Assembly (NCBI RefSeq): GCF_014698475.1
Contig: NZ_JACJTB010000020.1
Span: 1-64,000 of the forward strand
Direction: 5' to 3'
Source of the DNA: Nostoc spongiaeforme FACHB-130
GTDB taxonomy: Bacteria; Cyanobacteriota; Cyanobacteriia; Cyanobacteriales; Nostocaceae
Length of the DNA stretch: 64,000 nucleotides
Shown: one piece after another, positions 207 to 44,813 of the stretch
Numbering within the stretch: position 1 is the stretch's first letter
Layout of the letters: each line of letters begins with the position of its first letter
The notes under the pieces: generated by a model
Told to the model about the DNA's origin: nothing
Database searches by the model: none
What the model saw: only the letters and a program-made list of their open reading frames with translations
Program-made: the position numbers and the translations under genes

Positions 207-611
207 GTGGGTTGTGTGATTCCTTTATTGCTCATACCCAAATTGCTAGAATGCAGATACTTTTTATCATCCGCGATCGCTATGACTCGTCAAGAAATCG
301 AAGAGCAACTTCTGGGCTTATCGCTTGCTGACAAAGCAGATATTATCCAAAGTCTGACCAAAAACCTTAGCACCAGTGGAAGGGGAATTACTAAAACTCC
401 TGGTGTGTGTGGTGGTGAAGCTTGTATTGCGGGAACTCGAATTGCTATTTGGCTTTTAGTGGAAGCACAGCAACTTGGTATTAATGAAGCTCAATTATTG
501 CAGGACTATCCTCACATTACCGCAGCAGATTTAGTCAATGCTTGGGCTTATGCTGATGCTTATCCCGAAGAAATTACTGCCGCAATTCGTGCTAATAATG
601 AGGCAGCCTAA
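207..611 (+). CDS. DUF433-family protein, a putative antitoxin-like partner; true start probably the internal Met near 283 (MTRQEIEEQ)
   Basis: The translated ORF has the DUF433 signature region (GVCGGEACIAGTRIAIWLL...). It lies 3 bp upstream of a DUF5615/PIN-like gene, a pairing widely seen in TA-like operons. Confidence 0.6.
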   Translation: MGCVIPLLLIPKLLECRYFLSSAIAMTRQEIEEQLLGLSLADKADIIQSLTKNLSTSGRGITKTPGVCGGEACIAGTRIAIWLLVEAQQLGINEAQLLQDYPHITAADLVNAWAYADAYPEEITAAIRANNEAA

Positions 612-614
612 TCG

Positions 615-956
615 ATGGCACGTTTGTACACAGATGAACAATTTCCTCGGATAGTCAGCGAATTGCTGCGGACAATGGGACATGATGTTTTAACTGTACA
701 GGAAGCTGGTAACGATAATTTAGGTATTCCTGATGAGGAAGTATTAGCTTTTGCAATTAGAGATAATCGCGCAGTCATAACCCTCAATCGTCAAGATTTT
801 GTCCGCTTGCATCGTGCTAATTCTGAGCATTTTGGTATTATTGTTTGTACGAATGATACTGACAGAAATCGAATGGCAATTCGTATTAATGAAGCTTTGG
901 TATCTGAGGAATCTTTGGCAGGTAAGTTGATTCGGGTTGTACGTCCGGTAATTTAG
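615..956 (+). CDS. DUF5615-family (PIN-like) protein, the putative toxin partner of the DUF433 gene
   Basis: 113 aa, tightly coupled to the upstream DUF433 gene, with conserved acidic residues typical of the PIN-like DUF5615 family. Confidence 0.55.
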   Translation: MARLYTDEQFPRIVSELLRTMGHDVLTVQEAGNDNLGIPDEEVLAFAIRDNRAVITLNRQDFVRLHRANSEHFGIIVCTNDTDRNRMAIRINEALVSEESLAGKLIRVVRPVI

Positions 957-989
957 ACTATAACTATAAGTCGCCATCTCCAAAAACCA

Positions 990-1100
990 AAAAGCGTAGC
1001 CGTAAGGCTTGTCGTCAGACATCGCATTCTTCAAAACCAAAGTGGGATAACTTCGTTAAGCTACGCGATCGCACTTCTCAAAACTACCAAAATGCGATCG
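990..1100. repeat. Palindromic dispersed element (R1, about 70 bp, termini GCGTAGC...GCTACGC) followed by an R2 copy; R1 recurs at 2738-2822 and in degenerate form at 2845-2878
   Basis: Sequence comparison: GCGTAGCCGTAAGGCTTGTCGTCAGACATCGCA is identical at 995-1027 and 2738-2770. The copies end with inverted termini and contain an internal TGTCgtcaGACA palindrome. Confidence 0.65.
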
Positions 1101-1110
1101 CATATGGCAT

Positions 1111-1362
1111 TTAGCTTGCTACCTTGTTCAAAAAACTGTTGAAGCGATCGCTATCCATCAAGCCGTTTTCCGATAGTATGCGGCGCACTGCAACTAAATG
1201 CAATGTTCTGACATCCGCTTGTTGCTCGTAATCAGGCAGGACTATTAGTGTACCAGATGATGGATGCTGGTAAATCTTTTGAGAGCCAAAGGTCTGCATA
1301 GTTACAAACCCTGTCTCTAAGAGCAATTTCTCTAATTCTGTGAATTTAATTTCTCTAACCAT
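1111..1362 (-). CDS. hicA: HicA-like (YcfA family) mRNA interferase toxin
   Basis: 83 aa with the motif pattern FTELEKLLLETGF...GSQKIYQHPSSG...TLIVLP typical of HicA/YcfA toxins. It overlaps the upstream gene by 8 bp. Confidence 0.55.
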   Translation of the reverse strand: MVREIKFTELEKLLLETGFVTMQTFGSQKIYQHPSSGTLIVLPDYEQQADVRTLHLVAVRRILSENGLMDSDRFNSFLNKVAS

Positions 1363-1864
1363 GATGACGAATCACTCCTTGTAACTGGCTGAGAACATCA
1401 TTTTTAAATTTAGCAAATATTTTGATCGCCTGTATATTTAATACGTTGTCTTTAGATAAACGCACAGTTACACTATCACCAACATTCGCTAAATCGAATC
1501 CCTCAATGCTTTCAAAATATGCTTGTATATATAACCAATAAGCTTGGCTATTTTTTGCATCATATACAATTAAAATACATGGCATTGGTTCAACCAACCA
1601 TAATTCTAAATCCGAGCGGGTGATAGTAAAAGTAATGGTTTTTTGGTCTGCAAGTATAGAGAGGGAATCTGTAGCTTTTAACTGTACATATATCTGACCA
1701 TTTTCAATCTCACCTCCAGTATTATAAGTAAAAATCACTAGATCGTAGCCATAATCATACTCAATACGCTCTACAGAATACCCGCATAGCAAGATATATC
1801 TTTCGACATAGTTGACACTTAAATCTGCTATTATATGTTCTCTTGGTCGCTTTTTTCTGGGCAT
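1355..1864 (-). CDS. DUF4365 domain protein, co-transcribed upstream partner of the HicA-like gene (non-canonical antitoxin position)
   Basis: 169 aa whose translation resembles the DUF4365 family; translationally coupled to hicA-like through an ATGA overlap. Confidence 0.45.
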   Translation of the reverse strand: MPRKKRPREHIIADLSVNYVERYILLCGYSVERIEYDYGYDLVIFTYNTGGEIENGQIYVQLKATDSLSILADQKTITFTITRSDLELWLVEPMPCILIVYDAKNSQAYWLYIQAYFESIEGFDLANVGDSVTVRLSKDNVLNIQAIKIFAKFKNDVLSQLQGVIRHHG

Positions 1865-2091
1865 TGAACGGGCTTTTTAGTTTAAAATTATCAAAATTAT
1901 ATTATGGCGTTTCTTACTCTAGTGAAATACAGAGAAGAATAATTAACCGCAGATAAACGCAGATGGACGCAGATAAATTTGTACTTCAGTAGACTAGGAA
2001 AGGTAACGCACTCCCATCAACCCTAATAAAAGCGATCGCGGTGGGACTTTAGATATACTCAAACTAGAATCAATTAGCTGATAATATTTGA

Positions 2092-2304
2092 ATGATGACA
2101 AATCGTGAAGAATTAATTCAAGAACTAGAACAAGCCCCTGATGATATAGTTCAATCGGTACTAGATTTTTTGAATCGGGTAAAAGCCACACGCAAAACTC
2201 ATCCTCTAGCAAAATTTGCAGGGATTTTAAGTGATGTCGAAGCCGAAGAATTAAAACGGGTGATAATCGCAGAATGTCGGCAGGTGGATGTAAATGAGTG
2301 GTGA
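2092..2304 (+). CDS. vapB: VapB-like antitoxin
   Basis: 70-aa acidic protein immediately upstream of the VapC gene and overlapping it by 11 bp. Confidence 0.6.
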   Translation: MMTNREELIQELEQAPDDIVQSVLDFLNRVKATRKTHPLAKFAGILSDVEAEELKRVIIAECRQVDVNEW

Positions 2305-2683
2305 GATTGCCCTTGATACTTCTGTGGCTGTGCGTTTTTTGAATGGGGATGAAGTGGTTGTTTCGCGGGTACTAGCTTTACCAGAAATAGTTTTACCTAC
2401 TGTTGTGGTTGGTGAGTTACTTTTTGGTGCGGAAAATTCAACTCGTCCATTACAAAATTTACCGCGTTATCTGGAATTTATTGAGGCTTGTGTAGTTGTA
2501 CCATTAAGTCGAGAAACAGCCGCAGTTTATGCTCAAACTCGATTGATGTTGAAACGGAAGGGACGACCAATTCCGATGAATGATGTTTGGATTGCGGCAC
2601 AGTGTTTGGAACAGGGTTGGGTTTTAGTGACAGATGATACAGATTTCGATTATGTTGATGGTTTGATGTTAGAGCGTTGGTAA
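2294..2683 (+). CDS. vapC: VapC PIN-domain ribonuclease toxin
   Basis: 129 aa with PIN signature residues (IALDTSV..., ...VTDDTDFDYV). Classic vapBC arrangement. Confidence 0.8.
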   Translation: MSGEIALDTSVAVRFLNGDEVVVSRVLALPEIVLPTVVVGELLFGAENSTRPLQNLPRYLEFIEACVVVPLSRETAAVYAQTRLMLKRKGRPIPMNDVWIAAQCLEQGWVLVTDDTDFDYVDGLMLERW

Positions 2684-2877
2684 TTTGTAGTATGCAAAGG
2701 CTAAAACGCGATCGCACCTCCCCATAATTTCCACAAATGCGTAGCCGTAAGGCTTGTCGTCAGACATCGCACTTCCCCACAATCACACAGGTGATAACCT
2801 CGTTCAGCCACGCTAACGCACACAAAAAACCCCTATAAACACATAGCCATAAGACTTGTCGTCAGACATTGCCATAG

Positions 2878-3141
2878 TTAAGGAAAATATCTGTAAATAT
2901 CCTTTCTTTGTAATGCTCTAACAAAAACAATTATGCCATCAGAGATTGTTAACCCAATTCTGTAATCCCCTATTCTAATCCGATAATAATCGCCGTCAGC
3001 TTTCAGTTTTTTAACATTATTCACATCTAAAAGACTTTCGGCATTTTCGACTTCTTCAATTACTGTTTGTATTTTTTGTAGCAAGGTTTCATCTCGGATT
3101 TTGCTTAAATCTTTTTCAGAGCTACTTTCTAAACTCAACAT
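2878..3141 (-). CDS. RelE/ParE-family toxin
   Basis: 87 aa with the C-terminal motif DYYRIRIGDYRIGLTI...IVFVRALQRKDIYR characteristic of the RelE/ParE superfamily. It directly abuts an upstream small gene. Confidence 0.75.
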   Translation of the reverse strand: MLSLESSSEKDLSKIRDETLLQKIQTVIEEVENAESLLDVNNVKKLKADGDYYRIRIGDYRIGLTISDGIIVFVRALQRKDIYRYFP

Positions 3142-3351
3142 TCATCCTTTATTTCCTAAAATCTTGAAAATTGCCTCTCGGCTCACTAACTCGGTATTTT
3201 CGCCTTCTTTAATGGCTTTTTCTAGTGCTATATCTTCAATGATTTCTGCTAATAAATCGGAAAATACTTCTTTTTGTTCTTGTATAACTTCGGTTAGTGC
3301 AATTTTAAATATTTGCTTAATTTTATCTTCGTCAAAATTTAGTTCTGTCAT
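3142..3351 (-). CDS. Antitoxin partner of the RelE/ParE toxin
   Basis: 69-aa acidic protein whose stop codon is adjacent to the toxin start codon. Confidence 0.55.
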   Translation of the reverse strand: MTELNFDEDKIKQIFKIALTEVIQEQKEVFSDLLAEIIEDIALEKAIKEGENTELVSREAIFKILGNKG

Positions 3352-3408
3352 CTTATTTCCTTCATCTGTGGATTGATATTAGCAGAGCGAATAATTTATG
3401 CTGTTTCG

Positions 3409-6400
3409 CTATTTATTCGGGCAAATCTGCCGACGCAATTCATCGCGGGTAGCCAGATAACCTTGGAGATACTTGCAACCCTGAGTGAGTAAATCATCTA
3501 AATCCAAACTCCACAATTTGATGGTCTTGTCCGAACTTGCGGAAGCTAAAGTTTTGCCATCTGCACTAAAGGCGACGCTGTTGACATTATCTTGATGCCC
3601 GGTAAGGGAGGTAATTTCTTTGCCTGTACTAACATTCCACAACTTTATAGTGTTGTCAGCACTAGCAGAAGCTAAAGTTTTACCATCTGGGCTAAAAGTG
3701 ACGTTGAAGACCGAACCTTGATGCCCAGTCAGGAAGGCATTCTCTTTACCAGTAGCAATATCCCATAATTTAATGGTGTTTTCCAAACTGGCAGAAGCCA
3801 AGATTTTTCCATTTGGACTAAAAGCGATGCTTTGGATTTTTGATTGATCCTCTTGAAAAGTGAAAATTTCTTTGCCTGTAGTTAGATTCCATAACTTAAT
3901 AGTTTTGTCATCACTTGCGGAAGCTAAGGTTTTGCCATCTGGGCTAAAAGCGACACTGTTGACTGAAAATTGATGGTCTCTGAAAGTGAAAATTTCTTTG
4001 CCTGTAGTTAGATTCCATAACTTAATAGTTTTGTCATCACTTGCGGAAGCTAAGGTTTTGCCATCTGGGCTAAAAGCGACACTGTTGACTGAAGATTGAT
4101 GACCTCTGAAAGTGAAAATTTCTTTGCCTGTGTTCAGATTCCACAACTTAATAGTACTAGTTTTTGTACCATTGCGAATGGTAGCACCATTAATAGTAGT
4201 AGTGATAGTACTAAAATTTGTATTGTCACTTGCAAAAGCTAAAGTTTTGCCATCTGGACTAAAAGCGACGCTGTTGACCCCAGATAAATGCCCACTCAAA
4301 GTAGAAGTTTCTTTGCCTGTGGTCAAATTCCACAATTTTATTTTGTCAAAATAAGCACCTGCGGAAGCCAAGGTTTTGCCATCTGGACTAAAAGCGACGC
4401 TTATAGGCAGAGATTGATGATCATTAAAAGTAGAAGTTTCTTTGCCTGTGGTTAGATTCCACAACTTGATGGTGTTATCAGAACTTGCAGAAGCTAAGGT
4501 TTTGCCATCGGGGCTAAAAGTTGTGCTGAAGACCAAATCTTGATGTCCAGTTAAAGTAGAAATTTCTTTGCCTTTGGATAGATTCCATAACTTGATGGTG
4601 TTATCAGAACTTGCAGAAGCTAAGGTTTTGCCGTCGGGGCTAAAAGCGATGCTGTTGACTCCTGATTTATGCCCAGTCAAGGTTGATTCTTTGCCTGTAC
4701 TCAAATCCCACAAGCGAATGGTACTGTAATCACTTGCGGAAGCTAAAGTTTTGCCATCTGGACTAAAAGCGACACTGTTGAACTCTTCATCACGATGCCC
4801 AGTCAAGGTTGAAATTTGTTTGCTTGTAGTCATATCCCACAACCTGATAGTGTAGTCACGACTTGCAGAAGCTAAGGTTTTGCCATCTGGACTAAAAGCG
4901 ATTTGACGAATCCTAGATTGATGCCCGGTCATGGTTGAAATTTGTTTGCCTGTGGTCAAATTCCACAACCTGATAGTGTAGTCAGCACTTGCGGAAGCTA
5001 AGGTTTTGCCATCTTGAGTAAAAGCGATACTATTGACCCAACTTTGATGCCCAGTCAGGGTTAATATTTTTTTACCTGTGGTCAAATTCCATAACTTTAT
5101 GGTTCTGTCAGCACTTCCAGAAGCCAAGGTTTTGCCATCAGGACTAAAAGCAATGCTGCTGACTCCTGATTGATGCCCAGTCAAGGTTAAAATTTTTTTA
5201 CCTGTGGTCAAATTCCATAATTTAATGGTGTTGTCAGAACTTGCAGAAGCCAAGATTTTGCCGTCATGACTAAAAGCAACTTCAGAGACTATATCTTGAT
5301 GCCCTTGTAACTGATTGCGTTCCCGAATGTTTAACAAAATCTCTTGTAAACTAAATATTGGGCTGTAAGCCGGATAATCAGCTAAAGATGTTTTAGCTTT
5401 AACTAAATTTTTCAACTCCTTCCCAGCCCGCATTATTTCCATTAAATTCTCAATTTGCCCTCCTACACCAAACTGACGCAAAGTTCTAATTCCCGTCTGC
5501 TCCAATCGTGTCGCTGTGAGAGCATTTTGGCGCTGTTTTTCTGTTGCTTGTCGCTGCGTTTCGGCTTTTTGTGCCAAATTTAGGGCTGTTTGGGTTTCTC
5601 GTTGTGCTTGTCGTGATTGTTCAAGAGCAGTTTCTCGTTCTTGTTGAGCTATTTCCTTTTCTCGTAATGCTGCTTCCTTTGCTTTCTTGATTTCATCTAA
5701 ACTTTTTTCCGCTTGTTGACGTTTTTGTTGCGCCTGTCGTTTTTCTTGTTCCGCTTTTTCTGTATCTCCCTGCGCTTTTGTAGCTGCTTTTTTTAGAGAT
5801 TCTTCTCTCTGCTTTAAGGCTTGGACTTCTTGATTTTTTTGCTGGAATTGTCTATCGAGATTTTTTACCTTATCATCCGCTTCTTTTACTCTATCGTCTG
5901 CTGTTTTAGTTATAGTTTCAGCCTTTTGTTGTGCTGTCAACCTTTCATCATTAGCCCAATTAGCAAAAATCAAAGCAGCAACAGACCCAATTATGGAAAT
6001 AACCAGCACAATCAAACCAATACGAGTTCTTTTTTTTGCTTTTTCTTCTTCCTGCAAAGCTTGATTTCGTTTTGCGTCCGCCTCCTCAACCTTCTGATTT
6101 AACTCAGATTCAACACTCGCAGATAAAAAACGATAATCAGCATCACTCAAACTTTTTCCATTAGCCCAGACACGAGCTTTTTCTAAGTCTTCCGACTGTA
6201 ATAAATAAGAAGTATCCTGAAATTGACTTTTTAACCAAGCGTTAAAATTATCAGCATAAGGACGCAATTTATTTAACTCTGTCTCAACCCAACTTAAATT
6301 AAAAATATTCCGATAAACGAGATTATAAATCTTTAAATTTTCCTCTTGCTCCACTACCAATCCAGTCAAACGCAACCTCATTTTTTCTGGGCTACCATCA

Positions 6401-7407
6401 ACAGCAATCTCTCCTTCTTGCAAAATTTGCTGATACAAACCCAACAAACTCCCAGCAAATTTTTCGTCCGTGACAATCCTTTTCCGTATAGTTCTTAAAT
6501 GCTCTGGTTCATCCAAGGATTCCCAGTTATCAATAATTTGCTTTCTGACAACTTTTCCCACCCAATCCAAAGCATTTGGCTCTGGGGTGTAACATTCTGA
6601 ATATACAGATAGTTCTTGTAATAATAAATTACAAAGTTTCTGCGTTAAAAAAGGTTGTCCACCAGTCCAACATAAAACACCTTTCATCACTTCTTGAATA
6701 TTGCTAACTTTTCCCCTCAATCCTTCAGCTAAGGGCGCAATTTCATCTTCCTTAAAACCATTAAGTTGAACTGCTCGACCAATATTAAATGGCGTTCGTT
6801 TTTTATCATCAATCAAATCGCTGGGAGTAGCCACACCTAGCAAAGCAAAGGTCAAACGATTTAAATCTGGATTTAAAGCACGCTTTTCATAACAACTTCT
6901 AATCAGAGCAAAAAAATTATTAGAGTGCCGAAACTTTAAATTTAAACTTAAAATACTATCGATTTCATCAATAAAAATAATAATATTACCCTTGACATTT
7001 GGCAGCATTACCTCTTCCAAAAACGAACCAAATCGCTGCACAGGAGATAATTGAATACGTTTATCCCACCAAATAAATAATTCTTCGGGTGGAGATAAAA
7101 CTTGTAGTTGATTCACCAAGATGTAAGCAATACCTGTATACCATTGTTCAAGGCTGCTTTCCTGACTACCTTCATCAATACCTATTTCGGTTAAATCAAT
7201 CTTGGCACAAGCAAAACCCTCTGTTTGCAATCGTTTCATTGTCCGATTCAGCAAGCTGGTTTTACCCATTTGTCGGGAGTTAAAGACAAAACAAAACTCC
7301 CCCGCTTTCAACCACTGATAAAATTCTGTGTCGGCTTTTCTAAATACGTAACTGGGGGCATTTTCTGGTAAACCACCACCAACTTTGTACTCATAATGTC
7401 CCGTCAT
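3409..7407 (-). CDS. Giant NTPase–WD40 signalling protein: N-terminal AAA-like ATPase domain (pfam14516-like), coiled-coil region, single predicted transmembrane helix, second coiled coil, C-terminal run of about 14 WD40 repeats (two beta-propellers)
   Basis: 1332 aa. The Walker A motif [10 protein letters not shown] lies in an AAA-like N-terminus. A hydrophobic segment [26 protein letters not shown] sits between E/K/Q-rich coiled coils. The C-terminus has many [26 protein letters not shown]40 units. Confidence 0.85.
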
Positions 7408-7452
7408 AATTTATCCACAAAAATAAAAAAAATATTGAGGACTAGATCCCCT

Positions 7453-7485
7453 AGAACCCCGACTTCTTGAAGAAGTCGGGGTTCT
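7453..7485. repeat. Perfect palindrome AGAACCCCGACTTCTTgAAGAAGTCGGGGTTCT in the divergent intergenic region between the two AAA-like genes
   Basis: Read directly: 16-bp arms. The same core (CCCCGACTT..AAGTCGGGG) recurs at 44781-44813. Confidence 0.8.
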
Positions 7486-7638
7486 GAATCCAGTGAGCTT
7501 TTATTAAACAGCCATACCACCTGAGTTAAGCCAAGAGAATATCGAGTACCGATTGACTTATTATCGACTTGTTATTTACTTTACAACAAAAAGCCTTTTC
7601 CTTTAAGCTAAATTACGTAGCTCTTTTCACCATCTGCC

Positions 7639-9039
7639 ATGCTTCGTGCAACACGCTCAGTAGTACTACGTGATAAAAACTGCCAAGATAAGGTTTTAGT
7701 CCGCTTTCACGGGCAATACGGTAGTCAGAAATATTTAGGCCAATATTTAGGAGGAATGGCTCAAAGTACGGTTAGTAAGTTTCTCAATATGCAACCTGTT
7801 GACCGTGAGACATTTATCCAAATTTGTGCAGCTTTGGGTATAGAAGATTGGCGAAGCGTTGGTATCCCCTACAGAAAGCCAGCAGATAAAACAGAAAATA
7901 GCGATTCTGAGGAATTAGAAGAATTAGAGGAGTCAGAGAAACAAGAGGAAATTCCCACCTTACGAACCCCAGTACATATCAGCACTCTAGAATATCCAGA
8001 CGGAGAACAACTAGCCCTAAATTCCAATTTTTACGTCCAGCGTCCCCCTGTAGAACAGCAATGTTTTGAAGAAATTAGCAAACCTGCTGCACTGATTTGT
8101 ATTAAAGCTCCCCAAAAAATGGGGAAATCGTCCCTCCTAGTACAGATTATTCAACAAGCAAAAAATCAAGGTGATGCGACGGTAGTTATCAACTTTGAGC
8201 TAGGGGAAAAAGAATTTTTCAGCGACTTGAGTAAATTTTTACGCTGGGTGTGCGATCGCATCATCCTAGAATTGACTAAAGACAATCTCGAATTAGCCAC
8301 CGAACTGTTTGAAAAATTAGACGAGCATTGGAAATTGGCTCCACGTATTGGTAGTAAAATAGCTGCCAAATATTACTTAGAGCGATATCTACTCCCCAAA
8401 ATCAATCAACCCCTAACCCTAGCACTGGAAGAAGTCGATAGATTATTTGAGTATCCAGGAATTTACAAAGACTTTTTTGGACTATTGCGTTCTCTCCATC
8501 AAGAAGGAAGACAACAAGAAATCTTCAAAAAACTCCGCTTAGTGATAGTACATTCCACGGAAGCCTATGTACCAATGGATATCAACCAATCCCCCTTTAA
8601 CGTAGGTTTACCCATCAAGCTACCAGAATTTGACCCGGAACAAATGCTAGATTTAGCTAAACGTCACCAACTGGAATGGAGTGATACGCAAGTCCAGCAA
8701 TTGAGAGACATGATTGGCGGACATCCTTATTTAGTGCGTCTGGCTTTGTATAAAATAGCTCGTGGTGAGATAACCTTATCTCGGTTTCTGGAAACAGCAT
8801 CCACCCCATCAGGGATTTTCAGTAGTCACTTGCGTCATCTTAGCTTAATTTTGACAGAACAACAGGAATTAGGCGCAGCGATGAAAGAGATTATAAATAC
8901 TAACAAACCAGGAAAATTCAGCGATGCAGTCAGATATAAATTAATAGCTTTGGGTTTAGTAAATCTGTTAAATGACGAAGTGATAATACGTTGCAAGCTA
9001 TATTACCAATATTTTCAGAATTTTTATAAAAATAAATAG
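7639..9039 (+). CDS. AAA-like domain (pfam14516-like) NTPase with an N-terminal HTH-like segment
   Basis: 466 aa. The P-loop APQKMGKSSLLVQ matches AAA-like domain proteins common in cyanobacteria. The N-terminus (QSTVSKFLNMQPVDRETFIQICAALGI) resembles a short XRE-like HTH. It is divergent from the large AAA-WD40 gene. Confidence 0.7.
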   Translation: MLRATRSVVLRDKNCQDKVLVRFHGQYGSQKYLGQYLGGMAQSTVSKFLNMQPVDRETFIQICAALGIEDWRSVGIPYRKPADKTENSDSEELEELEESEKQEEIPTLRTPVHISTLEYPDGEQLALNSNFYVQRPPVEQQCFEEISKPAALICIKAPQKMGKSSLLVQIIQQAKNQGDATVVINFELGEKEFFSDLSKFLRWVCDRIILELTKDNLELATELFEKLDEHWKLAPRIGSKIAAKYYLERYLLPKINQPLTLALEEVDRLFEYPGIYKDFFGLLRSLHQEGRQQEIFKKLRLVIVHSTEAYVPMDINQSPFNVGLPIKLPEFDPEQMLDLAKRHQLEWSDTQVQQLRDMIGGHPYLVRLALYKIARGEITLSRFLETASTPSGIFSSHLRHLSLILTEQQELGAAMKEIINTNKPGKFSDAVRYKLIALGLVNLLNDEVIIRCKLYYQYFQNFYKNK

Positions 9040-9089
9040 ATACTGAATAAAAGTCGATTTTTCTTTGGGTATAACTCAGATGGGTGTAG

Positions 9090-9599
9090 GTGACATTAAG
9101 GTTGTCGAGTTCAACAGACAATTTCATGTTACACCAAGCATTCAGCAACAAACAAATCAAAAACCTCACAGCAACCGCAGTATTCGCATTTATATCTCTT
9201 TTTACAAGCGTAGTTCGTGCAGAAGACGATCGCTCATATATTTATGAAGTCAAAAACCAGCTCTTAGAGCGAGCAGAGATCGCAGGTTTGGGTGGTTACA
9301 CTTTAACTCACAAACCTAGCATCGATACCCTTCGTGAAGGTCGCTCCCACTATATCAATATAAATCTGCGTGCAGGTATGTCCTATGGAATTGTGGGAGT
9401 GTGTGACAGCGATTGTCAAGATTTAGACATTTCTCTTTATGATCACCGAGGAAACTTGATTGCTTCAGATTTACAAGATGATGACATTCCCGTGATTAGC
9501 CTCAATCCCTCTCGAAGCGGTAGATATCAAATCCAAGTTGATATGGCTAATTGTAATGCCAATACTTGTTACTACGGCATAGGTGTATTTGGTCAATAA
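9090..9599 (+). CDS. Hypothetical secreted protein with a predicted signal peptide
   Basis: 169-aa ORF with a hydrophobic N-terminal segment (LTATAVFAFISLFTSVVRA) and several Cys residues. No family recognised. Confidence 0.4.
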   Translation: MTLRLSSSTDNFMLHQAFSNKQIKNLTATAVFAFISLFTSVVRAEDDRSYIYEVKNQLLERAEIAGLGGYTLTHKPSIDTLREGRSHYININLRAGMSYGIVGVCDSDCQDLDISLYDHRGNLIASDLQDDDIPVISLNPSRSGRYQIQVDMANCNANTCYYGIGVFGQ

Positions 9600-9639
9600 A
9601 CCTAAATTGAAGGAGCGCAGACATTCAAAAACACATATC

Positions 9640-9770
9640 TTGCACCTAGCCCCAACGAATGGAATTCGCGGCTATAAAAACGAAGTCCGCCTACGCGGAC
9701 TAAATTAAAATCAAGGGTTTTGAGCCTGCCTCCGCAGGCTTTGTTCGTGTAGCCGCGATTTTAATCGTTA
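9640..9770. repeat. Structured small dispersed repeat: outer inverted repeat (CGCGGCTAT...TAGCCGCG) enclosing two GC-rich hairpins (GTCCGCctaGCGGAC, GCCTGCctcCGCAGGC); related copy at 50060-50135
   Basis: Read directly; both copies share CTATA(A/C)AAACGAAG followed by a GC hairpin. Confidence 0.6.
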
Positions 9771-10033
9771 GTGCAAGATGTGTGAAAATTCACAGTTCAA
9801 CTTCAGATTAAATTGGGTAGAAAATAATGCCGTGTGCAACTTTCTCTTAAACCTAACCCCCAACCCCTCACGCCAATTACTACAACTTTGGGAATCAAGG
9901 TGAGTAATATTCAAAGCCTCTCTCCGGTTTGGAGAGGGGTTTCAAGAATAAGTCGCACAGTATCGGATAAAAAATTACACCAAGTTTAAGAAAATCAGAC
10001 CTGAGCAAGTGAAGTGTTAACTTAGATGATTAG

Positions 10034-12142
10034 TTGCCCAACAGGGCGCATAATATGAAAACTTTTCCATCTTGCTTTGGTAAGAGTAAGCAAAATAAAT
10101 TAGTTCGTTTGGGATTGTCAGCATTAACAGCCTTAGCCATCACGGGCGGTATACATTCAGCTAATGCAGCTTCCCTAAAAACCCAAAGTTCAGCAGAAAT
10201 CGCTTCAGCATCAGTCAGCCTCAGTCAAACACAAGCCGTTACTAATCAGCCTTCCTATCAAGCAATGCAGATAGCACCATTGATTCCCATAGTGGTGCTT
10301 GGTGGCGTTGTTATATTTGTGCCGTTGTTTTTTGGCGGACTCGTAGTGATTGGCGAACGGGAAGTTGGCATTGTCGTGAAAAAATTTGCCCTCTCTGGAC
10401 GCGGACTACCACCCGGAAGATTAATTGCCCTCAACGGTGAAGCTGGTTTGCAAGCCGATACCCTTGCACCGGGTTGGCATTGGGGTTACTGGCCTTGGCA
10501 ATATTCGGTTCGTAAAGAATCGGTGGTGGTAGTACCCCAAGGTGAAATCGCTCTGATTGTAGCCGCAGATGGCGCATCCAACCCACCAGAGAGGATTTTG
10601 GGCAAAATTGTCGATTGTGATAATTTCCAAGATGCACGCAAGTTTCTGACCAATGGCGGCGAAAAAGGCCGTCAAATGGGCTTTCTGACTGCTGGGACTT
10701 ACCGCATTAACACCGCACTGTTTCGCGTCATTATGGCGGCGAATGCCAAACACAATGATATGCAGGCCGAACAATTGCGGGTGTATAGTGTGGCATCAGA
10801 TAAAGTCGGCATTGTCACCACTTTGGATGGTTTACCGATTCCGGCTGGTGAAATTGCAGGGCCGATGATTCCTGGACACGATAATTTCCAGAATGGTCAA
10901 AAATTCCTCAATGCTGGTGGACGCAGAGGTTTGCAAGAGCAAATTTTACTGTCTGGTTCTTGGAACCTGAACCCCTGGTTTGTGCAGGTTGAGCAAGTCC
11001 CCATGTCTGAAATCCCGATTGGTTATGTGGGTGTGGTGATTTCTTTCGTTGGTCAATCTCAAGAAGATGTCAGTGGCGCAACTTTCACGCATGGTAACTT
11101 GGTGAATCCTGGACACAAAGGTGTGTGGATAGAACCGTTGTATCCAGGTAAGCATCCCGTCAACTCTCGAATTATGAAAATTGAGTTGGTTCCCACGACT
11201 AACATTGTGTTGAATTGGTCAAGTCGTACCGAACGCCACAGCTATGATGCTCATTTGGCTTCCTTGACAGTACGATCGCGCGATGGTTTTGCCTTTGATT
11301 TAGAAGTCGCCCAAATTATTCACGTCGGCGCTTTGGATGCACCAAAGGTAATTTCCCGTGTGGGTTCTATGCAAAATTTAGTTGACCATGTATTAGAACC
11401 GACCATTGGTAACTATTTCCGCAACTCTGCCCAAGATTACACTGTACTTGATTTTCTCACCGCCCGGAGCGATCGCCAAGCAGAAGCGGCTGAGTATATT
11501 AGAGCAGCATTACGCGCTTATGATGTACAAGCAATTGACACCTTAATCGGTGATATTCAGCCCCCAGCATCCTTGATGCAAACCCAAACAGACCGCAAAA
11601 TTGCTGAAGAACAACGCAAAACCTACGAAGTGCAGCAGGTAGCCCAAACCCAACGCCAACAACTTGTGCGGGAAACAGCATTGGCTGACATTCAACAAGA
11701 AATGGTGAAATCAGAAAAAAGCGTCCAAATTGCGGAACTCAAAGCCCAAGCCCAAATTCAACACGCCACTGGGGAAGCCGAAGGAATCAAATTACGCGCC
11801 ATAGCCGAAGCCGAAGGGATTCGCGCCACAGGTAACGCCAAAGCCGAAACCTACCGCGCAGGTGTGGAAGCCTTGGGACAACAAGGTTATACAGCTATGC
11901 AATTGATGCAGATTATAGGCGATCGCAACGTCCGATTGATACCAGAAGTTTTAGTCAGTGGTAACGGTAGTAATAATGGCTTGGTAGATGGTTTACTTTC
12001 AATGATTTTATGGAATCAAACAGCCAAGCAAGGTGAAGTCACACCCACACCTTTACATCCACAACCCATAGTTGTGAATAACCCAGCAGTTTCACCAAAT
12101 AATCACTCGCCCATAGTTGCGGAATTCCCAACGGATAAGTAA
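10034..12142 (+). CDS. SPFH/band-7 (flotillin-like) domain membrane protein
   Basis: 702 aa with an N-terminal signal/TM, a central SPFH-like region, and a C-terminal A/E/Q-rich coiled coil (EAEGIKLRAIAEAEGIRATGNAKAETYRAGVEA) typical of flotillin-like proteins. Confidence 0.65.
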   Translation: MPNRAHNMKTFPSCFGKSKQNKLVRLGLSALTALAITGGIHSANAASLKTQSSAEIASASVSLSQTQAVTNQPSYQAMQIAPLIPIVVLGGVVIFVPLFFGGLVVIGEREVGIVVKKFALSGRGLPPGRLIALNGEAGLQADTLAPGWHWGYWPWQYSVRKESVVVVPQGEIALIVAADGASNPPERILGKIVDCDNFQDARKFLTNGGEKGRQMGFLTAGTYRINTALFRVIMAANAKHNDMQAEQLRVYSVASDKVGIVTTLDGLPIPAGEIAGPMIPGHDNFQNGQKFLNAGGRRGLQEQILLSGSWNLNPWFVQVEQVPMSEIPIGYVGVVISFVGQSQEDVSGATFTHGNLVNPGHKGVWIEPLYPGKHPVNSRIMKIELVPTTNIVLNWSSRTERHSYDAHLASLTVRSRDGFAFDLEVAQIIHVGALDAPKVISRVGSMQNLVDHVLEPTIGNYFRNSAQDYTVLDFLTARSDRQAEAAEYIRAALRAYDVQAIDTLIGDIQPPASLMQTQTDRKIAEEQRKTYEVQQVAQTQRQQLVRETALADIQQEMVKSEKSVQIAELKAQAQIQHATGEAEGIKLRAIAEAEGIRATGNAKAETYRAGVEALGQQGYTAMQLMQIIGDRNVRLIPEVLVSGNGSNNGLVDGLLSMILWNQTAKQGEVTPTPLHPQPIVVNNPAVSPNNHSPIVAEFPTDK

Positions 12143-12559: not shown

Positions 12560-14560
12560 ATGGCATTTGTTGATGAAATCACACCTGAACAAAAATCTTT
12601 AATGCCAAGTTATCGAGAGAAATGGCATGAAATAGCATTTTTAACAAATAGAATTGACCAACAAAAATCTATATCAGCAATTCAAGATGTCTATGAACTA
12701 CTGAAACTGCCCACACCAGAAATTCAATTATTTGATAGTTTATATGCAGCAACAAAAATAGCAAAGCCTCTGTATAAGCGTCCTTACTTCACTGAAACTG
12801 GTTTAGTACATGCAAATGAATTAATAGGTAAGATACATGAGAAGTTGTATATTAACAATATAAATGCTATTGGTCATTGGGATGAATTTATTAATTCTCA
12901 ATTGCGTCCTGGGGCAACTTCAGAAATAGACAGACAGTTATCAGAGAGTTTTAAGAATTACCTTTTAGAAGATAAATCAAAATCTTTTTCATCCAGTTAT
13001 AACTATTATTGGTTTGTTCCTCTTCATTGGTATGCCCGTGAAGGTGGATTCTTCGATTTTCATTTCTCCGTAGTCAGTCATACGCTATTTGAACCTTATG
13101 ATGAATCTGCTTGGAAAGTATTTCAGAAGCTTGTTAAATCGTGTGGTTGGATTATTCCTTTTGAAAACATTTGTTTAGTTTGCGATCGCCCAACTCAGTT
13201 TTTGTTTGATTCCGAAAATTTACTTCATGCAGAAGGAGAAGCAGCAGTTAAATTTATTGATGGCAATGGGCTTTATTCTTACCACGGCGTTACGCTGCCA
13301 ATGGAATATGGAGAAAATCACCCTCATCAATGGCAACCAAAGTGGTTATTAGATGAAACTGATACAGAACTCAAAAAAATTCTAGTTCGAGCTATTACAA
13401 GCAAGGCTGAAAACTATAAAACTCGCTATTTTAAAGAAGCTTTAGAAATGGCTGCCAGCGTAGGAAGGCTGAATATTGTTCAACAGATATTAGCAATACA
13501 GAAATTTGATGGTCATTCTCTATCTAATGCTCTGGCTCATGGAGTCTGGAGTAGAGATATCAAAATTCTAGAAGTTTTAGTTCAGGCTGGTGCTTACTTA
13601 AATCTCCGCACAGAGTGGGGTACACCTTTGATTGCTGCTGCCAGAACAGGAGATGTGAGGATTGTCCGTTACTTGGTAGAAGCAGGCGCAGATCCAAATA
13701 TGTGGATAGACTACGATGGTTACATGAGTCCGCTTTCAGAAGCAAGCTATGAAGGACATCAGGAAGTTTGTGATTATCTTCTCCCTTTAATCACAGACCC
13801 AGAAGAAATTGAATATGCCGAACGAGAGTTACCAAAAGCAGTAATTCGCAAACAGCGACGAGAAAATCAATCCCTACAAAAATTCTTTGATGCTGTTAGT
13901 GAGAGTGATGCAACTACAGTGCGTGAGTTAGTTGCACAAGGTCTAGATATCAATTCTTTAAATGAAAATGGTATTACTGCTGTTCATTGTGCCGTTAATG
14001 GTGGTAATGTACGAATGATCAAGTTGCTGGCAGAATTAGGAGTAGATTTAAATCGCCTCGATGAAGATGGGCGAACGCCCTTGATGAGGGCAATTGGCAT
14101 CTATGCTTTTCAAGCTAGGGCATTGCGGACTTTAATTCGTGCTGGGGCTGACTTCAACTATAGAGATCAGGAAGGATACACAGCTTTGGACTATGCGGTT
14201 TTAGATTCCAGTATCCCAAGAGTTTTTGAAAAAATCCTGCTCTCTGCTGGCGCTCAACATGGTTGTTGGAAAGGAACAGAAATTCATCTTGCAGCCTCAA
14301 GCGGTAATGTCAGGTTAATTAATATTTTGGTATCTTCTGGGATAGATGTTAACCTGTTCTCTGAAACAGATGGTTTAACTCCACTCATGAAAGCTGTTAT
14401 ACATTCCAGAGCTTGGGCAATGCGAACTTTAATCCGTGCTGGTGCAAATGTTAACAGCAGAACTGAGAATGGCGAAACAGCGTTATATTTTGCTGAACAT
14501 ACAGGTAAGAAACATCCAGTGATTAAAAAGATTTTGCTAAAAGTTGGTGCAACGTACTAA
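12560..14560 (+). CDS. Ankyrin-repeat protein with an N-terminal domain of unknown function
   Basis: 666 aa. The C-terminal half contains about 8 ankyrin repeats (G.TPL..A...G....V..L...GAD.N). Confidence 0.75.
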   Translation: MAFVDEITPEQKSLMPSYREKWHEIAFLTNRIDQQKSISAIQDVYELLKLPTPEIQLFDSLYAATKIAKPLYKRPYFTETGLVHANELIGKIHEKLYINNINAIGHWDEFINSQLRPGATSEIDRQLSESFKNYLLEDKSKSFSSSYNYYWFVPLHWYAREGGFFDFHFSVVSHTLFEPYDESAWKVFQKLVKSCGWIIPFENICLVCDRPTQFLFDSENLLHAEGEAAVKFIDGNGLYSYHGVTLPMEYGENHPHQWQPKWLLDETDTELKKILVRAITSKAENYKTRYFKEALEMAASVGRLNIVQQILAIQKFDGHSLSNALAHGVWSRDIKILEVLVQAGAYLNLRTEWGTPLIAAARTGDVRIVRYLVEAGADPNMWIDYDGYMSPLSEASYEGHQEVCDYLLPLITDPEEIEYAERELPKAVIRKQRRENQSLQKFFDAVSESDATTVRELVAQGLDINSLNENGITAVHCAVNGGNVRMIKLLAELGVDLNRLDEDGRTPLMRAIGIYAFQARALRTLIRAGADFNYRDQEGYTALDYAVLDSSIPRVFEKILLSAGAQHGCWKGTEIHLAASSGNVRLINILVSSGIDVNLFSETDGLTPLMKAVIHSRAWAMRTLIRAGANVNSRTENGETALYFAEHTGKKHPVIKKILLKVGATY

Positions 14561-44780: not shown

Positions 44781-44813
44781 AGATCCCCGACTTTTTGAAA
44801 AAGTCGGGGATCT
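44781..44813. terminator. Perfect palindrome AGATCCCCGACTTTTTgAAAAAGTCGGGGATCT between convergent genes; likely a bidirectional terminator or dispersed palindromic element
   Basis: Read directly; it shares its core with the palindrome at 7453-7485. Confidence 0.6.

Follow-up and report, generated by a model that had tools for sequence, protein, structure and literature searches.

The usual picture of bacterial STAND and NLR-like repeat proteins is that they detect proteins of invaders within the cytosol. PknD of Mycobacterium tuberculosis is a kinase-transmembrane (TM)-beta-propeller protein. The closest described layout is that of planctomycete kinases, which were read with DeepTMHMM as single-span proteins with a cytoplasmic Pkinase domain and periplasmic WD40 or TPR arrays (Odelgard et al. 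2024, PMC11032199), and periplasm-facing sensors have also been discussed for nucleoside triphosphatase (NTPase) conflict systems (Doré et al. 2024, PMC10907252). In cyanobacteria, Sll1491 of Synechocystis is annotated as a periplasmic WD-repeat protein. Here we analyzed a stretch of 64,000 nucleotides from Nostoc spongiaeforme FACHB-130 (contig NZ_JACJTB010000020.1, positions 1 to 64,000), hereafter the window, focusing on a gene for a protein with an AAA_35 NTPase head, a hydrophobic segment, a stalk and 14 WD40 blades, and on its divergent neighbor, which encodes a helix-turn-helix (HTH) AAA_35 paralogue. The focal product is very probably a single-pass membrane protein with a cytoplasmic NTPase and extracytoplasmic WD40 propellers.

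This protein resembles the planctomycete kinases (PMC11032199) in its predicted arrangement of a cytoplasmic nucleotide-using head, one TM segment and long extracytoplasmic WD40 or TPR arrays, and in the diversity of its sensors. It differs from them in having an AAA_35 head with no Pkinase match at all, a long stalk quantised in heptads and a conserved tail with two cysteines, and its output would probably run through the paired HTH-AAA_35 paralogue rather than through phosphorylation. Compared with STAND-repeat proteins such as Apaf-1/CED-4, plant NLRs, Avs and the nSTAND1-WD40 proteins of PMC7159879, the membrane would here split the sensor from the NTPase, whereas the characterised STAND sensors are cytosolic; the focal protein also has no effector domain. 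What appears new is the combination of an AAA_35 head with an HTH paralogue, while single-pass receptors with periplasmic repeat arrays and NTPase-repeat sensors were known already. Neither AAA_35 nor a membrane helix linking NTPase and WD40 is mentioned in the conflict-system survey in which nSTAND1 was defined (PMC7159879), a systematic study of prokaryotic WD40 proteins (PMC5587647) or a 2026 STAND survey (PMC13581612). A literature search combining "AAA-like domain", cyanobacteria and WD40 found no papers, AAA_35 or PF14516 as a name returned only noise, and as far as the searchable literature shows, no AAA_35 member has been characterised.

The original prediction had described the 1332-amino-acid open reading frame (ORF) as an AAA-like P-loop domain followed by a coiled coil, a single hydrophobic segment, a second long coiled coil and about 14 WD40 blades. 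ORF, Pfam, hydrophobicity, heptad and blade analyses bore out this architecture in every detail (Table 1). A search with residues 1-703 of the focal protein (E <= 1e-5) scored 7999 homologues, nearly all from Nostocales and other cyanobacteria, and because so many were scored the layout is not a chance pattern. The counts of homologues with the hydrophobic segment given below are taken from 120 sequences retrieved out of these 7999, or from 121 when the query is included.

Residues 463-485 are the sole strongly hydrophobic stretch of the protein, with a Kyte-Doolittle 19-mer mean of 2.89 (runner-up 1.11) and a simple sum on the Hessa scale of -3.1 kcal/mol (runner-up segment +10.6). The segment consists of 20-23 consecutive apolar residues without any charge and is directly preceded by KKRTR. 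Two outcomes had been named beforehand as speaking against a TM helix, namely that homologues lack the segment or that it is buried in a globular core, and we found neither. A 19-mer with a Kyte-Doolittle mean of at least 1.9 was present in 112 of the 120 homologues, and it lay at residues ~400-560, directly after the NTPase module, in 104 of 121 sequences; the homologous segments differ in sequence and keep their hydrophobic character and an apolar length of 19-24 residues. In an AlphaFold2 model of residues 1-500 built from a 52-sequence alignment (predicted local distance difference test 87.1, predicted template modelling score 0.77), the segment lies inside one continuous helix of 78 residues (422-499) that projects from the globular head.

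Four in-silico indicators support the predicted placement of the NTPase inside and the propellers outside. The 15 residues before the segment contain on average 4.2 lysines and arginines in the homologues, compared with 2.15 after it, and this excess lies on the N-terminal side in 92 of 104 homologues and on the C-terminal side in just one. Relatives with the same head and TM segment continue at this position with four PG_binding_1 domains (P0082) or with CHASE2 and more TM segments (P0101, P0022), PG_binding_1 and CHASE2 both being extracytoplasmic. Of 40 full-length WD40-type homologues, 37 have an even and 3 an odd number of cysteines following the TM segment, whereas in the head, before the segment, 22 have an even and 18 an odd number. 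An even count beyond the membrane is what one would expect of a domain that is exported and disulfide-bonded. Finally, an ATPase head requires cytoplasmic ATP. The orientation with the N-terminus inside and the C-terminus outside is drawn from these four points, and also from the heptad-quantised helix lengths on both sides of the segment described below.

The cysteines concerned are largely those of the C-terminal tail. In 35 of the 37 even cases, the cysteines after the TM segment are exactly the two of the conserved tail, and cysteine density is 0.44% after the segment compared with 1.11% before it; TPR and PG-binding variants have 0, 2 or 4 cysteines there. In the focal protein, C1311 and C1329 are the only cysteines after the TM segment. 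The tail motif ...GCxYLxxYL...ICP and its cysteine pair are conserved even behind divergent WD40 arrays, and judging from this pattern the tail is probably disulfide-bonded.

If the segment did not span the membrane, for instance as the core of a soluble oligomeric helical bundle, the protein would be a cytoplasmic NLR-like sensor. This would agree with the way STAND-WD40 proteins are usually modelled, with an AlphaFold2 confidence of only ~70 in the segment and with one relative (P0008) in which the TM segment is followed by GUN4, a normally cytoplasmic porphyrin-binding domain. We nevertheless consider it very improbable, given the uncharged apolar stretch with its favorable insertion energy, a hydrophobicity conserved without sequence conservation, the positive-inside asymmetry, the PG-binding and CHASE2 domains downstream in relatives and the cysteine parity; DeepTMHMM also reads the analogous kinases in the same way (PMC11032199).

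The helices on both sides of the predicted membrane segment show a preferred length. In 47 of 61 non-identical homologues, the TM segment starts 42 residues from the conserved pre-TM motif D..[FY]L.[AST][SG]; in the others this spacing is 49/50, 56, 63 or 84 residues, and in the focal protein it is 39. Beyond the membrane, residues 486-640 keep a single unbroken heptad register with an Ala/Leu core column, and their hydrophobic power spectrum peaks only at period 3.5. By this register, the stretch is predicted to be a true coiled coil. The distance from the TM segment to the [DE]YPxxSP motif, which is present in 65 TM-bearing homologues, falls into a short class (54-72 residues) and a long class whose values step by 7, and periods 7 and 3.5 give a phase resultant of 0.63-0.64 for the stalk lengths, with no other period above 0.44. 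The linker at residues 641-690 is 72-77% identical in L004 and L001. These length patterns suggest selection on the helical register that links head and sensor, which would be expected if a signal passes mechanically along the rod.

The head itself matches AAA_35 (PF14516) over residues 13-314 with an E value of 8.6e-29 and 100.8 bits against a cut-off of 27 bits (Pfam, repeats left out). Its Walker A motif is G48-K49-T50 and its Walker B motif D147-E148, and G48, K49, D147 and E148 are invariant in 52 aligned sequences. The same 52 sequences share an invariant TGGQP at residues 248-252, which starts a lid helix (252-268) and is aligned with GGHP in the partner protein. The STAND class, reportedly defined by Leipe and colleagues in 2004, is said to combine a P-loop with Walker A and B motifs, a core-lid-winged helix arrangement and a GxP motif in the lid. 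The focal head has this tripartite module of NTPase core, helical lid and winged helix, and its fold resembles Avs and NLR proteins. Its closest structural matches are archaeal PF01637-type ATPases, PABY2304 (2qen) and SSO1545 (2fna), at 11-16% identity, rather than members of canonical STAND clades, and a search of Protein Data Bank sequences with the head gave no match. The label "STAND-like" of the original prediction therefore holds at the level of the fold; the best structural matches are these archaeal ATPases. Unlike the present pair, PABY2304 and SSO1545 are soluble, stand alone and have no TM segment, stalk, repeats or HTH. Some homologues (e.g. P0002-P0006, P0008, P0012, P0022) have two tandem focal-type AAA_35 modules before the TM segment. 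We rejected the idea that the extra N-terminal modules are fused partners, as they are 44-54% identical to the focal head and 23-28% identical to the partner.

A second AAA-like NTPase with an HTH-like N-terminus had been predicted as the divergent neighbor of the focal gene, and conservation of this pair across cyanobacteria had been proposed as a check. The neighbor is real. It matches AAA_35 over residues 124-461 (Pfam E 1.2e-126, 422.5 bits), and its AAA_35 module and the focal head are paralogues with 24% identity. At its N-terminus, HTH_3 matches residues 29-68 with an E value of 8e-4 and 19.8 bits, under the cut-off of 23 bits; the AlphaFold2 model confidently shows residues 6-80 as a domain of four helices, after which comes an acidic linker predicted to be disordered, and many homologues of the partner carry PF01381 or PF13443 and bear the names of XRE-family regulators. 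A TM-like segment was found in 0 of 120 members of the partner family. Variants in this family include HTH-TIR_2-AAA_35 (P0237, P0240) and HTH-AAA_35-AAA_35. In comparison, MalT-type STAND transcription factors, in which an NTPase is fused to a DNA-binding domain, have a C-terminal LuxR-type HTH, whereas the partner has an N-terminal XRE-type HTH and no sensor repeats of its own; the membrane paralogue seems to do the sensing for it.

The divergent pair is conserved. We compared five orthologous loci, from Tolypothrix tenuis, Calothrix brevissima, Scytonematopsis, Dulcicalothrix and a TPR-bearing variant (contigs L002/L003). The partner, at 68-89% identity, is divergently upstream in all five and immediately adjacent in four of them. 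In C. brevissima NIES-22, a DDE_5 transposase gene lies between the two genes (L004 8575-9882). The PG-binding variant likewise has a divergent AAA_35 partner, and the CHASE2 variant has its partner upstream, with a 293-amino-acid sigma-70 region 2 protein (E 2e-6, L013 4855-5736) between them. Two more distant loci carry a partner-like paralogue in tandem, and at least 10 further pairs are linked by consecutive locus tags (CAL7716_034530/40; BV378_25780/85) or an apparent shared contig. The pairing thus holds across WD40, TPR, PG-binding and CHASE2 variants, and functional coupling of the two genes is likely. Because the genes are adjacent and paralogous, we infer that the two proteins may interact physically.

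The intergenic region of the pair is conserved as well. Its core contains tandem 20-nucleotide repeats at 7540-7559 and 7562-7581, with T[TC]GACTT at 7553 and 7564, 11 bp apart, and is 93-96.5% identical to the corresponding regions of L005, L007 and L002, which at least matches the adjoining coding DNA. By position and conservation, these repeats are a candidate operator. The region also holds a perfect palindrome, CCCCGACTTCTTGAAGAAGTCGGGG, at 7457-7481, with a second copy (2 mismatches) at 44785-44809; the palindrome is inserted in the intergenic region of the pair both here and in Tolypothrix (L005). We rejected the 56-bp palindrome as an operator, since it is a dispersed mini-element missing from three of the five aligned orthologous regions. 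An Rfam search gave only sub-threshold, miRNA-like noise, which fell on the palindrome of the intergenic region.

Downstream of the partner lies a 169-amino-acid ORF that weakly resembles PPC (Pfam E 0.04; its homologue in L002 reaches 0.0013). In the orthologous loci, the slot after the partner always holds a small ORF with a signal-peptide-like start, of one of two unrelated types. A small exported ORF as a conserved third component was rejected on the finding that the two slot types are only 13-18% identical.

The extracytoplasmic part predicted for the focal protein is variable in several respects. Pfam finds 14 WD40 matches (PF00400, E 5.5e-167), corresponding to 14 blades of ~42 amino acids that are 60-95% identical to one another at the nucleotide level. 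The blades differ from one another chiefly in the residues that directly follow the GH dipeptide and in the B-C turn, which in WD40 propellers make up the top face. The low-complexity insertion that had been noted in one blade lies in blade 9 (residues 1028-1090), where it adds 21 N/T-rich amino acids to the B-C turn, and the L004 and L007 orthologues have insertions in this turn as well. We rejected an origin of the blade-9 insertion from a half-blade, whether degenerate or shifted in frame, since it aligned no better than shuffled sequence (score 19 against a shuffle mean of 17.6). Heads that are 92-94% identical can be followed by sequences with less than 25% identity after the TM segment; Tolypothrix has another WD40 array there, and L002 has TPRs. 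The reverse is seen in the syntenic allele of Nostoc FACHB-190, with a head only 49% identical, a TM segment 96% identical and a near-identical tail. From these contrasts between head and ectodomain identity, the proteins are mosaics with a breakpoint at the membrane helix.

Such variability bears on a structural reading, in which the protein would be an envelope scaffold or spacer, for example at the peptidoglycan or the septum, and the NTPase would drive assembly instead of signalling. The long rigid stalk with its heptad-quantised length, the relative in which four PG_binding_1 domains replace WD40 and the expansion of the family in filamentous Nostocales would all suit a scaffold. Ectodomains that are swapped and hypervariable are, however, unlike a housekeeping scaffold, a close relative lacks the gene or has another in its place, a short-stalk class also exists, and a DNA-binding paralogue as constant partner suggests regulation. 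We consider a scaffold improbable.

A two-gene module that signals from outside to inside the cell is, on balance, the best explanation of the locus. In this module, the variable top-face loops of the blades would bind an extracytoplasmic ligand in the periplasm (or the thylakoid lumen). A continuous helical rod would leave the head, cross the membrane, hold the blades outside and relay the signal inward, and because of the coiled coil the protein would be at least a dimer. The cytoplasmic AAA_35 head, with its ORC/STAND-like core, lid and winged helix, would act as a nucleotide-dependent switch and engage the soluble HTH-AAA_35 partner, most likely through hetero-oligomerisation of the two AAA_35 modules. 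This engagement would alter binding of the partner to the conserved repeats between the two genes, and as a result the pair would be transcribed differently, as would the gene or genes for exported proteins downstream of the partner. The complete chain, from external ligand through rod, NTPase switch and hetero-oligomerisation with the HTH paralogue to transcription, is put forward tentatively.

Several observations weigh against signalling through such a module. Besides the GUN4 domain of P0008, the syntenic FACHB-190 allele has no partner, and partner-type modules were not found fused to focal-type ones. The second acidic residue of Walker B varies in the partner family (E in 60, K in 19 and T in 17 of 105 members), because of which the partner may not hydrolyse nucleotides. 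The intergenic core is just 75% identical in L006, and a scan of the intergenic region for sigma-70 consensus promoters found none. The homologue counts are also not phylogenetically independent. The FACHB-190 allele itself (L001 7548-8000, P0018) starts at the equivalent of residue ~38-47, so that its Walker A motif may be partly or wholly missing, and it may be a decaying copy.

We further investigated how widely the layout of head, TM segment and WD40 array occurs. An exhaustive HMMER scan of cluster representatives was run with the linker and two blades as query; it ranked matches mostly by summed blade scores, and the family-specific linker motif was present in just one match. A separate search with the linker and blade 1 returned just 9 fragment candidates. 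Requiring one segment with a Kyte-Doolittle mean of at least 2.1 no more than 320 residues upstream of the first blade, with lysine and arginine enriched on its N-terminal side, 48 of 148 long WD40 cluster representatives had the layout. According to Pfam, the heads before the TM segment were Peptidase_C14 with nSTAND1, CHAT with nSTAND1, nSTAND1 alone, Pkinase and TIR_2, the nSTAND1 heads being true STAND modules. Examples are P0251, P0290, P0284, P0299, P0292 and P0306, with Pkinase heads in P0299 and P0292, and several such representatives share the pre-TM helix motif LL.G..L..A..W...L...F..AS with the focal protein. The description of the topology as unusual was thus overstated, given its frequency among long WD40 clusters and its publication for planctomycete kinases.

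Table 1. Features of the focal locus. Positions are those of the window; residues are those of the focal protein.
Feature	Position	Strand	Residues	Description
Focal gene	3409..7407	-	1-1332	1332 amino acids, ATG start; AAA_35 head, predicted TM segment, coiled-coil stalk, 14 WD40 blades, Cys tail
NTPase head	6298..7407	-	1-370	P-loop NTPase core, helical lid, winged-helix-like unit
Adaptor and pre-TM helix	6022..6297	-	371-462	Helical adaptor with motif LL..edL..A..W...lsd.DyrFL.AS, then charged pre-TM helix ending in KKRTR
TM segment	5953..6021	-	463-485	Predicted transmembrane helix, signal-anchor type, N-in
Stalk	5488..5952	-	486-640	Predicted coiled-coil stalk, 155 residues, 22 heptads, ~23 nm if straight
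Linker	5338..5487	-	641-690	Helical linker or cap ahead of the propellers, contains DYPAYSP
WD40 array	3508..5337	-	691-1300	14 WD40 blades, presumably two 7-bladed propellers
Blade-9 insertion	4156..4227	-	within 1061-1084	N/T-rich, in the B-C turn
Tail	3412..3507	-	1301-1332	C-terminal tail with two cysteines, C1311 and C1329
Divergent intergenic region	7408..7638			Conserved core 7495-7638; palindromic mini-element inserted at ~7437-7490
Partner gene	7639..9039	+		466 amino acids; predicted XRE-type HTH ~6-80, disordered acidic linker 82-115, AAA_35 NTPase, lid, winged helix; no TM segment
169-amino-acid ORF	9090..9599	+		After the partner on the same strand; signal-peptide-like N-terminus, Cys-rich, possible accessory component
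DUF433	207-611			Toxin-antitoxin-like cluster
DUF5615	615-956			Toxin-antitoxin-like cluster
HicA-like	1111-1362			Toxin-antitoxin-like cluster
DUF4365	1355-1864			Toxin-antitoxin-like cluster
PIN	2294-2683			Toxin-antitoxin-like cluster
ParE	2878-3141			Toxin-antitoxin-like cluster

The pair lies in a variable island (1900-9931 of the window) whose flanks are 94-98% identical at the DNA level to Nostoc FACHB-190. A cluster of small toxin-antitoxin-like genes adjoins the focal gene (207-3141), with DUF433 beside DUF5615 and the HicA-like gene beside DUF4365, and its part within 1900-3400 is missing from the syntenic FACHB-190 locus, which lacks these toxin-antitoxin-like genes, the partner and the 169-amino-acid ORF. 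A gene for a 702-amino-acid Band_7/SPFH protein with a flotillin-like C-terminus (10034-12142) has a product 98% identical in FACHB-190; it is part of the conserved flank and outside the system. Nearby, a 666-amino-acid ORF with DUF6745 and ankyrin repeats (12560-14560) is absent from FACHB-190 and marks a second indel. A 358-amino-acid Trypsin_2 protease is encoded beside the AAA_35 pair in other loci (L002 4597-5673, L007 6416-7492, L014 9454-10530) and not in the window; its L002 and L007 copies show C-terminal TPR, and that of L007 has a signal-peptide-like start.

These surroundings bear on another role, that of a conflict or defence sensor at the envelope, in which the propellers would recognise a component of a phage or competitor and the NTPase pair would trigger a protective or suicidal response. 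This reading overlaps with the two-gene signalling module and differs from it mainly in biological role and output. The variable island beside genes resembling toxin-antitoxin systems (PIN, ParE, HicA-like, DUF433/DUF5615) fits it, as do the swapping of sensors and the diversification of repeats, which resemble the evolution of NLR and Avs proteins, and the Avs- and NLR-like fold of the head. Further points in its favor are the TIR_2 domain between HTH and AAA_35 in some members of the partner family (P0237, P0240), the same TM-WD40 cassette behind caspase/CHAT plus nSTAND1 and TIR heads, and the recurrence of an exported trypsin-like protease near the pair (L002, L007, L014). PADLOC-DB 2.0, on the other hand, gave no system match, returning only HEAT-ARM_XIII, driven by WD40, and a weak PDC-S01 (E 0.0023). 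Neither of the two proteins in the window has a recognisable toxic effector, the HTH being the sole output domain, and the plasmid search was without match, with no phage or plasmid association found. A role in defence or surveillance is plausible, and we regard the defence sensor as a possible but rather unlikely account of the locus as a whole.

If the conserved helix does cross the membrane between head (NTPase, kinase, TIR or caspase) and repeat sensor, then in this large, mostly Nostocales family, and in about one third of the long WD40 clusters sampled, the sensors would monitor the periplasm or the surface of the cell. An AAA_35-TM-sensor protein working with an HTH-AAA_35 protein might even represent a previously unrecognised class of signalling system, with an NLR-like switch in place of a kinase, a phase-locked rod and a hetero-oligomerised NTPase transcription factor. 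By extension, extracytoplasmic sensing would then apply to many bacterial NLR-like WD40 proteins whose heads are nSTAND1, caspase or TIR, though we hold this whole reading to be doubtful. For the family, the heptad-quantised rod would offer a way to study signal transfer through the membrane to an AAA+-type switch, and the HTH paralogue would give a simple, testable two-gene path from outside the cell to transcription.

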